A stretch of 64,000 nt of DNA from an uncultured Bacilli bacterium (GCA_934168245.1 CAKPMY010000001.1:68761-132760); one strand, 5' to 3'. Shown: positions 2,718 through 6,198, counted from the first letter of the stretch. Program-made: numbers and translations. The notes: generated from the letters alone by a model not told the origin.

Positions 2718-3983
2718 CTATTCATTTTCACTTAAAATGTCATTTTTAAAATCTACTACAGACTGTGCTTCTTCATCTTTATTATCAAAGAAGTCATCAT
2801 CCTGGAATTCAAATTCTTCGTCATCATTTTCTTCTTCATCTTCTTCTTTTTTCTTCTTTTTATCTAAGTATATTTTTCCACCTATACCACCTGCTGAAAG
2901 AGTACCTATACCAGCCAGTGCTGCCGCTGCTCCTGCAGATGAAGACTTCATCTTTTCTTTTGTAGCCTTATTTACATTAGGTGCTACAAATGAACTAATC
3001 GTACCAGTAACACTAGAAGATAAATCAGATAATCCTAAATCCTCACCATCAAGACCAGTATCAATACCATCACCTAAAGACTCTAAAGTATCACTACCCG
3101 TAATTCCTAAACTACCTGCTCCAACACCTGCTCCAGCAAGACCACTAGCTACATTACTTGCTCCAATAATAGATGCAATACCAGGTATACCTTTAGAAGA
3201 AGAATCCTTCATTAAATCATCTGAAGAAATGTCAAGAATATCATCTGTAATACTATCTTTTATTTGAATGTTATCAGCACCATCGACCTCATCAAAATCA
3301 ATAACACTACTATCCATAATATCTGTACTAACCGGAATTTCAACAGGTGCCGCAACTGGAGTAACTACATCGCTAGCATCAGTAGTTACACTAGTAACAC
3401 CAGCATTATTTATAGAACTAGGAGCAAACCTACTAGGATCTCCTCCCGAAGTAGAGATCCAAGTAAATAACGAAGCCTTAGCACTATTTACATCTACTCC
3501 ATTAGAATAATTAATAATAGCTTGCTTTATTTCCTCTATTGCTGAAACAAGTCCATTAAATGAAGGTTCAGAAACATAAGCATCCAATCCCGTAGTTCCA
3601 TGATAAATACTCAATAATTTATTAGCAGGATAATTAGTATTACTAGCATCATTCATTACTAAAAATTTACTATTATAAAAATGCTCTGGAGAAAAATTAG
3701 AAGCTGCAGACCACCATCCATGAGTTTGCCCAACTTTTCTTAATCTATCCTCCGCAACTTGCATATCTGAAAAAATTTGATATAATTCCTTGGCAAGTGT
3801 ATTTACAATTTCAACCGCTTCACCAACCGTTTTTTCATCCATATATAAACTGTCCCCATAAGATCTAGAACTAACTGTCATTTCATACTCTAATGGTTTA
3901 AGTGTCGTATATTCATATTTTCTATTAAGAACTGTGGATATATAATCAGCAGTACCAACAGATTCTTCCATTTTATCAGCCAT
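2718..3983 (-). CDS. Hypothetical protein, 421 aa: structured N-terminal ~200 aa, G/S/D-rich disordered middle, poly-K then strongly acidic tail
   Basis: Long ORF with a good RBS (AGAGGTGAG). No motif I can assign. Gly-rich GxGxG-type low-complexity region and a KKKKKEEDEEENDDEEFEFQDDDFFDN tail. Confidence 0.5.
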   Translation of the reverse strand: MADKMEESVGTADYISTVLNRKYEYTTLKPLEYEMTVSSRSYGDSLYMDEKTVGEAVEIVNTLAKELYQIFSDMQVAEDRLRKVGQTHGWWSAASNFSPEHFYNSKFLVMNDASNTNYPANKLLSIYHGTTGLDAYVSEPSFNGLVSAIEEIKQAIINYSNGVDVNSAKASLFTWISTSGGDPSRFAPSSINNAGVTSVTTDASDVVTPVAAPVEIPVSTDIMDSSVIDFDEVDGADNIQIKDSITDDILDISSDDLMKDSSSKGIPGIASIIGASNVASGLAGAGVGAGSLGITGSDTLESLGDGIDTGLDGEDLGLSDLSSSVTGTISSFVAPNVNKATKEKMKSSSAGAAAALAGIGTLSAGGIGGKIYLDKKKKKEEDEEENDDEEFEFQDDDFFDNKDEEAQSVVDFKNDILSENE

Positions 3984-3998
3984 TTATCTCACCTCTTT

Positions 3999-4340
3999 CT
4001 ATCCAATATCGCCCATTCGCTCAAGTCTTTCTTGTTCTTTAAGATAGTTCTGATAATTTTCATCTTCAAGTTTATAAATAGTATAAAAATCATCAAGTCT
4101 ATTATCCGCATAAGTCGCTAAATCACTTGCTAGTTTTTCTAATTCTTCTATTAACATATCAAATAACGGTTTAGTACCAACATCGCCATACTGTATAACA
4201 TTACTACTTGCTAGTCTTTCAAGATCCGGTATAATCTCATTAGTAATACCATTAATTAACTGAGTAAATTCACCAACATCAGAATAGATAGCATCAACAT
4301 CATCAGTCTTTACAATTTGTGATTGTTTCGTAATTCTCAT
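3999..4340 (-). CDS. Hypothetical small acidic all-helical protein, 113 aa
   Basis: ORF with a GGAGGTG RBS. Predicted helix-turn-helix hairpin with a central YGDVG turn. Superficially WXG100/Lap-like, but no WXG motif. Confidence 0.45.
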   Translation of the reverse strand: MRITKQSQIVKTDDVDAIYSDVGEFTQLINGITNEIIPDLERLASSNVIQYGDVGTKPLFDMLIEELEKLASDLATYADNRLDDFYTIYKLEDENYQNYLKEQERLERMGDIG

Positions 4341-4427
4341 TTAATACACCTCCATATCTTCTATCTTTATTATATAATTATTTCTCAAAAACTCAAAGTT
4401 ATCCAAAGTATTTTACTTAACTTTACA

Positions 4428-6074
4428 TCAAATAACTTCTTCATCATCTTCTATTTCTATAGGTTCAAACTCCCTAAATTTAACAATTACATCAATATCT
4501 GTAAAAGACAATTTACTCTTTATAACATCATTAATTAACTTTACATAATTAACTGATTCCATAAAACTATCTAGATTATCAACACTAATATCATCTAAAG
4601 TAACATTAATCCCTAATAATCTATATTTATCAGTAATAACATTAGAAACACCTACTGTCGAAAAACCATTAATCTTCTTTAAAAAACTATTATAAGGACT
4701 ATATATAAAATCAAAATACTTATTAAGTTCTTCTTCAAAAGAATAGTCTTCATTATCTTTAAACTTCTCATTAAACATCTTCTCTAGATAATAATAAGAC
4801 TCATAGCTTAAACTAAATAGCTCATATATACTATCAGTTCCATTAACTTTCTTATTAATCATCTCAATTATTTCTAAATCATGTAACTCTGTATACAAAA
4901 TATCTAACTTTAACACTTCTTCATTGATTTTTAACTTACTACTCTTAATTTTCTCTTCACTAACTATATGAAATAAGTTCTTACCTGTTGCATTTAAATA
5001 ATCATTATATATTTTCTTACGTTTACTCTCTTCAGCCTTAACTTCTTTCATCTTATTAGCAAAAACATTCTTATTAGCCTCTTTTTTACTGTATTTATCT
5101 TGTATATCTTTAATAATAAATTCATATCGATAATATAATTTCAAAACACTCAAAGTATGAGAAAGTTCAACCATATTATCATAAAACTTCGAACTATTCT
5201 CAATATCTTTAAATTCGCCATCTATCACAAACTGATTTAAGTTTTTGCTTCTTGTAGGAGAATCCTCTAAATAATCAAGTACATTTTTCTTCTTACTCAA
5301 AAAACTCTCTAAATTATAAAATTCATCTCTTGCCATATCCACATCATATTTATCAACATTCTCTAAATACTTAGAAACTAAATTATCTTTATCATATCCA
5401 CTCTTTTGTAATAACTGATAACTAACTGTATCTGTATATATTTTTAATTGTTCACTATATTTATCTAATAAACTCCAAAAGTTAAGTTTTAACTGTTTAA
5501 TAATATCCGGACACTCCCAATAAATACTATCAAAACTCTTCTTCATAACTTCTTCAAACTTACTACTATCTATACTATTAAGGAAAACATCCATATATTT
5601 TTCTGTAAACATAGTATATGTAAAATCACTAACTCCAAGTTTTATAGAAGCATCTTCAAATATCTTTATTATATTTAAAAACGTATTATTAATAGTATTT
5701 AACGAAACATTATCATCTATATCAATACTACTAATTAACTTAAATATTCCAAGTTTAAAACCTATACTATAATTACTATTATTAAAGATTATTACTTGTT
5801 TTTCTTTCTCTATATTTTTCTTTAACAAGTCATAATGATTACTTTTATCTTTAGGTAATAATGCATTTACCCGTGTCTTTAATAATTTATATACCTCAAC
5901 CTGATATTTATCAAACTTCTCTTTCTGTTCTTCTACATATTCATTTCTTTCTTTTACAGCACTCTTATGAAATTTCTCTTTCATTTTTTTAGTACCAGAC
6001 TCAAGTTCTAATTTGAATGTATTTATATGGTCATTATTAATGGAAATTTCTTTATCAATTTTTGTACTACTCAT
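4428..6074 (-). CDS. Hypothetical K/E/N-rich helical protein, ~548 aa
   Basis: Long ORF, no TM segment and no recognisable motif. Probable start is the ATG overlapping the stop of the upstream small ORF (ATGAGTAG), suggesting translational coupling. Confidence 0.5.
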   Translation of the reverse strand: MSSTKIDKEISINNDHINTFKLELESGTKKMKEKFHKSAVKERNEYVEEQKEKFDKYQVEVYKLLKTRVNALLPKDKSNHYDLLKKNIEKEKQVIIFNNSNYSIGFKLGIFKLISSIDIDDNVSLNTINNTFLNIIKIFEDASIKLGVSDFTYTMFTEKYMDVFLNSIDSSKFEEVMKKSFDSIYWECPDIIKQLKLNFWSLLDKYSEQLKIYTDTVSYQLLQKSGYDKDNLVSKYLENVDKYDVDMARDEFYNLESFLSKKKNVLDYLEDSPTRSKNLNQFVIDGEFKDIENSSKFYDNMVELSHTLSVLKLYYRYEFIIKDIQDKYSKKEANKNVFANKMKEVKAEESKRKKIYNDYLNATGKNLFHIVSEEKIKSSKLKINEEVLKLDILYTELHDLEIIEMINKKVNGTDSIYELFSLSYESYYYLEKMFNEKFKDNEDYSFEEELNKYFDFIYSPYNSFLKKINGFSTVGVSNVITDKYRLLGINVTLDDISVDNLDSFMESVNYVKLINDVIKSKLSFTDIDVIVKFREFEPIEIEDDEEVI

Positions 6075-6198
6075 TCTTATCATCACTTTCATTTATAATA
6101 CTATCATTTAGAAATTTAATATGTTGAAGTATATCTTGATATAGTTTAACTAATTCATCATTAGTAAGTTCTTCTATTTTTACTAGCTTTTCATCCAT
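6067..6198 (-). CDS. Small hypothetical protein, ~43 aa (MDEKLVKIEELTNDELVKLYQDILQHIKFLNDSIINESDDKNE)
   Basis: Short ORF with an AAGAGGGTGAAG RBS immediately after the terminator hairpin. The ORF-track N-terminus would be encoded by the hairpin itself, so the start is moved to the internal Met. Confidence 0.3.
   Translation of the reverse strand: MDEKLVKIEELTNDELVKLYQDILQHIKFLNDSIINESDDKNE

Follow-up and report, generated by a model that had tools for sequence, protein, structure and literature searches.

A micro-protein and an all-helical protein encoded beside SipW-type signal peptidases: candidate cytoplasmic accessories of surface-protein export in uncultured gut Bacillota

Introduction

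Fibres that depend on the signal peptidase SipW (TasA, CalY, BsaA) are the best-studied protein scaffolds of Gram-positive biofilms, and to our knowledge the SipW peptidase is thought, in every described case, to act alone on Sec substrates. The accessory proteins encoded in the operons tapA-sipW-tasA, sipW-tasA-capP-calY (PMC13082335) and sipW-bsaA-bsaB-bsaC (PMC11580942) all bear signal peptides, no cytoplasmic partner is encoded there, and we found no description of such a partner of SipW in the searchable literature. Here we analyse a SipW-type operon on 64,000 nucleotides (nt) of DNA from an uncultured Bacilli bacterium (GCA_934168245.1, CAKPMY010000001.1:68761-132760); the whole stretch is called the window below, and its coordinates are used throughout. 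All operon genes are on the minus strand and follow each other, in the direction of transcription, as T234, T335, a hairpin, D43, C548, B113, A421, another hairpin, the gene of a SipW-type peptidase and the gene of a giant surface protein. On balance we consider it probable, from comparative sequence analysis, that D43 and C548 (D/C) represent a new non-enzymatic cytoplasmic accessory of SipW-dependent surface-protein export, and that B113 and A421 (B/A) are a lineage-specific add-on.

The locus resembles tapA-sipW-tasA of B. subtilis in that a signal peptidase of the endoplasmic reticulum (ER)/archaeal type is encoded together with its own secreted beta-sandwich substrates and with an accessory gene in the operon. 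The signal peptide of T335 is similar in style to that of TasA (TYA-WFT and TWA-AFN, respectively), and the N-terminal segment of T335, flexible in the model, could by analogy with TasA act as a donor strand. In B. cereus, too, a lineage-restricted accessory protein is encoded within the SipW operon, and this protein, CapP, is closest in style to A421 (PMC13082335). In both, a structured N-domain, modelled as a helical bundle in CapP and putative in A421, precedes a C-terminal part that is charged and repetitive or disordered. CapP, however, carries a signal peptide and functions in the cell wall and matrix, whereas A421 has a probable C-terminal hydrophobic anchor; with no signal peptide and no DUF4047 hit, A421 was rejected as a CapP. 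The C. perfringens operon is likewise of a clostridial SipW type, with membrane-attached polymerising matrix subunits and a large extra secreted protein, but all Bsa proteins have signal peptides and the operon holds no cytoplasmic partner genes; the export of BsaC depends on type IV pilus proteins and on nothing similar to D/C (PMC11580942).

The WXG100/Lap-LXG pairs of type VIIb secretion are similar to B/A in that a small acidic protein is encoded just upstream of a larger one with a conserved N-domain and both evolve fast, but B/A were negative in every sequence test and lack a toxin domain, and the open reading frames (ORFs) scanned included no EssC. In the accessory Sec system, Asp1-3 are soluble cytoplasmic proteins without enzymatic motifs; their genes adjoin that of a giant serine-rich adhesin, and a special pre-protein reaches the membrane export machinery only with their help. 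The likeness of D/C to these proteins is a functional analogy only, no homology having been found, and the partner there is a translocase, here a signal peptidase. SecA2/SecY2 and glycosyltransferases were not found in the part of the operon that was read (T234 to the 5' end of the giant gene).

Results

D43 and C548 belong to a family linked to SipW-type peptidases

C548 has no hydrophobic segment and no signal peptide, and its predicted structure is all-alpha with a predicted local distance difference test score (pLDDT) of 94.7; the model gave no global match to PDB structures. A search among 1.84 billion representatives (counts refer to clustering at 50% identity) yielded 358 relatives at E<=1e-3 and 222 at E<=1e-10, mostly full-length with 500-570 amino acids (aa). 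In an alignment of 75 members the mean column identity was 34%, and the invariant or near-invariant positions were mostly aromatic or hydrophobic (F151, Y153, Y160, M161, F181, Y185, P189 and F258), the polar ones being N129 and K343 only, so that a scaffold fits better than an enzyme. Pfam searches with each of the 75 members gave scattered single hits and no consistent family, and their profile found no match among the PDB sequences beyond scattered single hits. C548 is thus predicted to be a soluble, non-enzymatic protein of cytoplasmic type. With its 358 representatives and a dN/dS (ratio of non-synonymous to synonymous substitution rates, see below) of 0.14-0.18, the C family is large, old and under constraint, with C548 as its founding member here, and no description of the D-C family was found in the searched libraries or the searchable literature.

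D43 has one predicted amphipathic helix motif, EELxxLYxxIxxHIxxL, and an acidic tail. A homologous gene for a protein of 33-56 aa, whose tail is usually acidic as well, abuts or overlaps the start of C in 20 of 20 loci; homology was established by iterative hidden Markov models (HMMs), with E values of 1e-12 to 1e-22 for most loci and 6e-5 for L027. The earlier note on this DNA had taken stop/start overlaps as a sign of stoichiometric co-expression. Such an overlap is indeed present between D43 and C548 (8 nt, ATGAGTAG), whereas C and B are separated by 87 nt and B and A by 15 nt, and translational coupling is therefore limited to D and C. To judge from this layout, D43 is translationally coupled to C548.

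The genomic neighbourhood of C was compared in GTDB loci and in distant contexts, the latter taken from ten representatives in which C has 23-30% identity; neighbours were assigned with iterative HMMs. Wherever a GTDB locus extends far enough, the gene of a SipW-type peptidase is found downstream of C, and this is also true of 7 of 9 distant contexts: in L019, L024, L025, L026, L029 and L031 it follows C immediately, and in L022 it comes three genes later. Within 2-10 kb a side, T234/T335 homologues are missing around D-C-SipW in L019, L026, L029 and L031. Since D-C-SipW is kept while T234/T335 come and go, the invariant unit is D-C-SipW and the cargo varies: nearby are the beta-sandwich, fibre-like subunits T234/T335, giant surface proteins, or both. 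Giant signal-bearing proteins recur beside the triad, namely in the window and L028, in L019, L022, L029 (3256 aa) and L032. D/C are genetically locked to SipW-type peptidases whatever cargo is nearby, and their conserved partner is the peptidase gene rather than the fibre genes for which the earlier note had proposed them as helpers. The window itself displays the arrangement that defines the family, an all-alpha protein of about 500-570 aa with an abutting upstream gene for a 33-56-aa protein carrying the motif and with SipW downstream.

One C homologue of 569 aa (P0248, L032 1038-2747) has no separate micro-gene upstream, and its extra N-terminal stretch of about 45 aa contains a D-like FLIFLRNEY segment. 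P0248 may thus be a D-C fusion, which, if so, would support a physical complex of D and C.

Two further observations concern the surroundings of the family. L022 (1-15285) harbours a much larger cluster with three to four SipW-like paralogues, T234 and T335 homologues, D-C, several small proteins whose signal peptides are of the TYAYY/TFAWF type, and a protein exceeding 1761 aa. In two unrelated contigs, proteins of 328 aa (L019 4632-5618) and 592 aa (L026 5588-7366, opposite strand) that share a C-terminal domain of about 130 aa (...LPY...FKNP...RFREAY...LDIYLxCLDDNELDK...) adjoin D-C-SipW; they may represent another recurrent partner, absent from the window.

The four genes are real and fall into two modules

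The four consecutive minus-strand ORFs of 421, 113, 548 and 43 aa reported by the earlier note are present, and their products are as acidic as it had described them, with isoelectric points of 4.15 (A421), 4.17 (B113), 5.16 (C548) and 4.36 (D43) and net charges of -43, -13, -17 and -7, respectively. An N-terminal signal peptide is absent from all four, the top 10-residue hydropathy within the first 40 aa being at most 1.0 compared with 3.2-3.8 in T335, T234 and SipW. An exact-sequence lookup placed A, B, C and SipW on 11-16 public contigs, the C protein in its 548-aa form on one of them and in a 554-aa form on 12. Relatives of C are present in 18 GTDB species-level genomes, and orthologues of D, B and A each occur in a subset of these loci. 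Against two relatives, the ratio of non-synonymous to synonymous substitution rates (dN/dS) was below 1 for each of the four ORFs, which are real genes under purifying selection. Searches of Pfam, NCBIfam, PHROGs and PDB sequences with A, B, C and D returned noise only. There was no sign of a mobile-element origin in the phage and plasmid collections searched, tblastn giving no match for A among phage records or for C among plasmid records.

The four genes are not co-conserved as a block, and they separate into two modules. Compared with the window, the 18 GTDB loci showed identities of 73-95% for T234, 68-92% for SipW (over its full length), 47-89% for T335 and 36-83% for C, falling to 30-51% for A and 27-45% for B; by this measure, conservation within the operon is highest in T234 and SipW. 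The very close strain L028 differs little from the window in T234, T335, C, A and SipW (96-99% identity, with 99% for T234 and SipW), while B reaches 85% and D 88%. With the same two relatives, dN/dS was 0.04-0.18 for T234, T335, C and SipW (0.06 for T234, 0.14-0.18 for C), 0.68 and 0.50 for B, and 0.16 and 0.48 for A. B113 is, on these figures, the fastest-evolving gene of the operon, and both B113 and A421 are confined to one sub-clade.

A and B are absent from five complete loci of a distant sub-clade (L011, L012, L013, L015 and L017) that have T234, T335, C and SipW, and in which SipW follows C after 92-128 nt; L016 has a C-SipW gap of 510 nt, within which no match to A or B was detected. 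Because relatives that keep T234, T335, D, C and SipW do without them, B/A are dispensable add-ons and not part of the core. The earlier note had proposed co-conservation with sipW/tasA-like genes as a check; such linkage, with sipW, is strong for D43 and C548, whereas the absence of B113 and A421 from these relatives is the outcome that the note had named as refuting. No paralogue of A or B was found by tblastn in the window or in any locus, both being confined to the same syntenic slot. This C-SipW slot is variable and holds in L022 an uncharacterised cytoplasmic protein of 370 aa straight after C. In one sub-lineage (L003 6293-6751, L005 13323-13793), an extra gene for 152-156 aa without a Pfam hit lies between A and SipW.

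The operon is moreover a recombination mosaic, as seen when window positions 1-6200 are compared with L001 (CAG:877) and L028. At its N-terminus the giant protein shares 97.8% identity with L001 and 79% with L028, C548 shows the opposite pattern (83% and 96%, respectively), and D43 is 100% identical to L001 (dS 0.05) and 88% to L028.

A421 and B113, a lineage-specific pair

The architecture of A421 was derived from an alignment of eight A orthologues. A variable, low-complexity N-terminus precedes a conserved domain (about 150 aa) that carries the motifs SYGDxxxM, a Trp with an adjoining aromatic residue (WW, WY or WF) and SFxxLxSAIEELRQAIxNYSNGxDV. An acidic low-complexity linker, presumably disordered, carries the motif DGADNIxxxDSxTDDI and leads to the motif S-F-(V/I)-(A/T)-P-x-V, a lysine-flanked, Gly/Ala-rich hydrophobic segment and an acidic tail that ends in VVDFKNxIxDDNL. 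The KKKKK stretch with an acidic tail noticed earlier at the C-terminus was found again, the tail measuring 43 aa with a net charge of -19. The Kyte-Doolittle value (19-residue window) of the hydrophobic segment is 1.33 for the window's own A421 and ranges from 1.59 to 1.84 across seven orthologues; as it is conserved at these values, a C-terminal membrane anchor is likely. The claim that none of the four has a transmembrane (TM) helix is therefore doubtful for A421. With the N-domain of A421 as the profile, 5 hits were obtained, all of them close or fragmentary, in a collection that contains the exact protein, so that the sensitivity of the search may limit this result.

B113, whose 113 aa fit the length of about 100 aa of WXG100 proteins, has a conserved central motif in eight orthologues, (I/V)-x-x-G-D-V-G-T, without Trp; the WXG motif is thus missing, as the earlier note had remarked, and a G-D-V-G-T loop is found instead of W-x-G. 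B113 was rejected as a WXG100 protein: PF06013 did not hit B113 at E<=0.1, nor any of eight orthologues at E<=0.05, and the B alignment reached 2.1% probability in hhalign against four WXG100 sequences. A421 was rejected as an LXG toxin (PF04740), with no Pfam hit in A421 or six orthologues; its C-terminal part is made up of linker, hydrophobic segment and acidic tail and contains no toxin domain. The analogy to WXG100/Lap-like proteins of the type VII secretion system (T7SS) is accordingly unsupported by profile, hhalign and motif tests. The accompanying remark that an EssC-like T7SS ATPase is missing was borne out, since none of the 30 larger window ORFs scanned encodes an EssC/FtsK-type ATPase or an FtsK_SpoIIIE domain.

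The signal peptidase, its candidate cargo and the operon layout

The protein downstream of A421 is clearly a SipW-type relative and, by the curated cut-offs, not an equivalog: it matches NF046067 at E 8e-12 with 45 bits (cut-off 190) and TIGR02227 at E 3e-5 with 23.8 bits (cut-off 47), with weak S24/S26 hits, and the motifs GSMSG, THR and GD-N were recognised by eye. Its peptidase domain lies between two hydrophobic segments, the second of which is followed by a conserved extension of about 260 aa (1369-2140) that is presumably cytoplasmic. The SipW of L024 has a homologous, shorter C-terminal extension, and SipW proteins beside C in other lineages have short, very basic tails in its place.

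The ATG of the giant-protein gene overlaps the SipW stop codon by one base. The protein exceeds 2828 aa in L028, its gene comes straight after SipW in 13 related loci, and it begins with an N-terminal hydrophobic segment and has a weak Peptidase_M26_N-like stretch; it is probably a further cargo of the SipW system.

T234 and T335 are paralogous, as shown by jackhmmer cross-hits and iterative HMMs, and share hydrophobic N-termini and the C-terminal motif W-(I/V)-E-G-x-D-x-(D/E)-C (W-I-E-G-D-D-P-E-C in T234). T335 combines a very basic n-region with a TYAWFT motif of the SipW-substrate type. It scores 15.3 bits against TIGR04088, under the curated cut-off of 19; five of 15 T335-family members match this model weakly, and among the matches listed none is above the cut-off. 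Neither T335 (at E<=0.1) nor T234 hit Peptidase_M73 (PF12389), and T234 had no Pfam or PDB sequence hit. Against PDB sequences, a 2026 copy that should include TasA, T335 found nothing either by phmmer or with a 15-sequence profile. To call this a TasA/SipW operon, as was done earlier, is right with regard to SipW and loose with regard to TasA.

The features of the operon are collected in Table 1. The promoter candidate is a consensus match alone, and such sites are no commoner in the region than in shuffled sequence. The hairpin between T335 and D43 may serve as an attenuator by which the subunit genes are expressed at a high level and the downstream genes at a lower one.

Table 1. Features of the SipW-type operon in the order of transcription (window coordinates).
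Feature	Coordinates	Strand	Remarks
Candidate sigma-70-like promoter, TTGCTA-17-TATAAT	8046..8074	-	Upstream of the first operon gene, T234; consensus scan, 10/12 matches
T234, 234 aa, N-terminal hydrophobic signal or anchor	7285..7989	-	T335 paralogue
T335, 335 aa, predicted secreted beta-sandwich protein with very basic signal peptide, candidate fibre subunit	6260..7267	-	
Terminator-like hairpin between T335 and D43	6223..6244	-	Nine-pair stem, then T-run
D43, 43-aa micro-protein	6067..6198	-	ATG behind AGGGTGA ribosome-binding site; mechanical ORF 60 aa
C548, 548 aa, predicted soluble, all-alpha	4428..6074	-	Mechanical ORF 554 aa from 6092
B113, 113 aa, small acidic	3999..4340	-	
A421, 421 aa	2718..3983	-	
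Terminator-like hairpin straight after the A421 stop codon, before SipW	2700..2719	-	Eight-pair stem, then T-run; putative function
SipW-type (ER/archaeal-type) signal peptidase I, 421 aa	1369..2634	-	True start probably Met near 2622
Giant surface-protein gene, 5' part, continues beyond the window edge	1..1369	-	From translation

Upstream of the operon lie genes for proteins of 283 aa (8464-9315) and 244 aa (9838-10572) with weak domain hints, the former having a sub-threshold match to PP2C phosphatases (E 0.018). Strain L028 does not share this synteny, its operon being preceded by a TetR regulator and an ABC transporter.

The host and other content of the window

The relatives are metagenome-assembled genomes from the human gut labelled 'Mycoplasma sp. 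CAG:877', 'uncultured Bacilli' or 'Tenericutes'. The window encodes SpoVAD, SpoVAC and a sporulation-type sigma factor (19707-21850) as well as ScpA/B, a PASTA kinase, sortases and SpaA-type pilins. From the sporulation, PASTA-kinase, sortase and related genes it follows that the host is a walled, spore-forming member of the Bacillota and the locus chromosomal; by its gene content, the label 'Mycoplasma sp.' or 'Tenericutes' is misleading for such an organism.

A separate sortase-dependent pilus cluster (22303-35207) encodes, besides two sortases, a tandem array of three paralogous SpaA-type backbone pilins (about 499 aa each, 24253-28991) and two large surface proteins with Listeria-Bacteroides/InlB B-repeats. 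Further genes encode a 932-aa protein with an N-terminal zinc ribbon and a clostripain-family (C11) peptidase domain (16491-19289), an activase-like radical S-adenosylmethionine protein (35370-35921) and two paralogous anaerobic ribonucleotide reductases NrdD of 771 and 709 aa (36125-42196).

Discussion

The linkage of D/C to SipW-type peptidases leads us to favour, on balance, a role of this pair as a cytoplasmic accessory of SipW-dependent export; the cytoplasmic type is assigned because neither protein has a signal peptide or a hydrophobic segment. The earlier idea of cytoplasmic helpers, putative chaperones or targeting factors, is thus supported for D/C by comparative genomics and does not extend to B/A. 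In the mechanism that we propose, D and C would form a complex at the inner face of the membrane, a binding suggested by translational coupling, universal adjacency and the possible fusion in P0248. Its target would be the cargo signal peptides, through their long basic n-regions, or else SipW, through its basic cytoplasmic tail or extension; in this way the delivery of these special pre-proteins would be coupled to cleavage by SipW and then to assembly. A421 would be tethered to the membrane by its C-terminal Gly/Ala-rich helix, with B113 as its putative small soluble partner. Inserted in the variable slot between C and SipW, this pair might modulate the system or adapt it in one lineage, while being dispensable for the system as such.

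Several points weigh against this proposal. Two distant contexts, L027 and L032, have no SipW, both on short contigs. The adjacency of D/C to SipW would fit a regulator equally well, and the hairpins after T335 and A421 might make D-C-B-A a transcription unit apart. SipW catalysis needs no such partner, because the enzymes of B. subtilis, B. cereus and C. perfringens work without one. As to the anchor of A421, the segment of the window copy, at 1.33, is under the classical TM threshold of 1.6. The SipW tails adjoining C are basic (+6 to +8) and the D and C proteins, as a rule, acidic, which would be compatible with docking. An argument from charge is nevertheless weak, because acidity is common to the majority of cytoplasmic proteins and the positive-inside rule by itself makes membrane-proximal tails basic; charge complementarity between D/C and the SipW tail was computed and set aside as too unspecific to serve as evidence.

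Regulation is the alternative that draws on the same gene order. Matrix and fibre operons often have small antagonist proteins encoded alongside, such as sinI/sinR by tapA-sipW-tasA, and D is a helical peptide of the size of SinI; D/C, with or without B/A, might thus control the operon as an anti-activator or a partner-switching pair or, post-transcriptionally, as a controller of how much fibre and adhesin is made, or when. The hairpins on both sides of the D-C-B-A block and the lack of catalytic-looking invariant residues in C would agree with this. We nevertheless regard it as unlikely, since no domain of DNA-binding, kinase or sigma-related type occurs in the 75 C members, what is strictly kept alongside is the peptidase gene and not a promoter region or a particular cargo, and a scaffold of 540 aa conserved down to 23% identity would be unusual for a local regulator. 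The proteins might instead be structural components of the spore, made in the mother cell, for which a signal peptide would be unnecessary, and deposited together with SipW-processed proteins as parts of coat, crust or appendages. The host sporulates, as SpoVAC, SpoVAD and the sporulation-type sigma factor in the window show, a SpoIVA-like gene (recognised from its N-terminal sequence alone) follows the L024 cluster, TasA was first described as spore-associated, and the acidic proteins, with the long low-complexity stretch of A421, are similar to many coat proteins. Yet C is well folded and strongly conserved, unlike a low-complexity coat protein, the universal linkage is to a membrane peptidase, and the sole promoter-like site found upstream of the operon is sigma-70-like, all of which makes a spore function improbable in our estimate.

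About as improbable is that one or more of the four proteins reach the outside by a non-classical route and act there as an assembly chaperone or anchor. TapA and CapP are indeed accessory proteins encoded within SipW operons, the helical N-domain and charged repetitive C-domain of CapP are superficially similar to A421 (PMC13082335), and A421 inserted with its N-terminus outside would expose a large acidic part towards the wall. TapA and CapP, however, have signal peptides and A, B, C and D do not, no DUF4047 or TapA model was hit, and the passage of a 350-aa N-terminal domain through the membrane without a signal peptide would be unusual. Least credible, and largely refuted, is the view that B113/A421 are substrates of specialised secretion that leave the cell without a signal peptide, either a T7SS-type WXG100/Lap and LXG-like pair or another one. 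The small acidic protein encoded before a larger one with a conserved N-terminal domain, and the fast evolution of both as in polymorphic secreted proteins, are what recommended it; PF06013/PF04740 remained without a hit at E<=0.05 in 15 orthologues (8 B, 7 A), hhalign gave B a 2% probability against WXG100, the loop reads G-D-V-G-T and not W-x-G, there is no toxin domain, A421 ends with a segment similar to a membrane anchor, and no EssC/FtsK ATPase was present among the ORFs scanned.

If D/C are an accessory of SipW-dependent export, a further-reaching possibility, which we put forward only tentatively, is that D-C form the cytoplasmic part of an unrecognised, dedicated export and assembly pathway of the Bacillota, in which SipW would work together with a soluble helical adaptor complex that would select pre-proteins with long basic signal peptides, among them fibre subunits and adhesins of several thousand residues, and hand them over. 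If true, this would be a Gram-positive counterpart of the Asp proteins of accessory Sec, or of those subunits of the eukaryotic signal peptidase complex that are non-catalytic.

For annotation, the label of four unknown acidic proteins masked a deeply conserved core pair and a fast-diverging, lineage-specific pair, which comparative studies should separate. D/C constitute a concrete gene pair for knock-out. The occurrence of D-C beside SipW in many uncultured gut Bacillota, near fibre-like subunits and giant adhesins, may point to a missing cytoplasmic step in the making of their surface structures.

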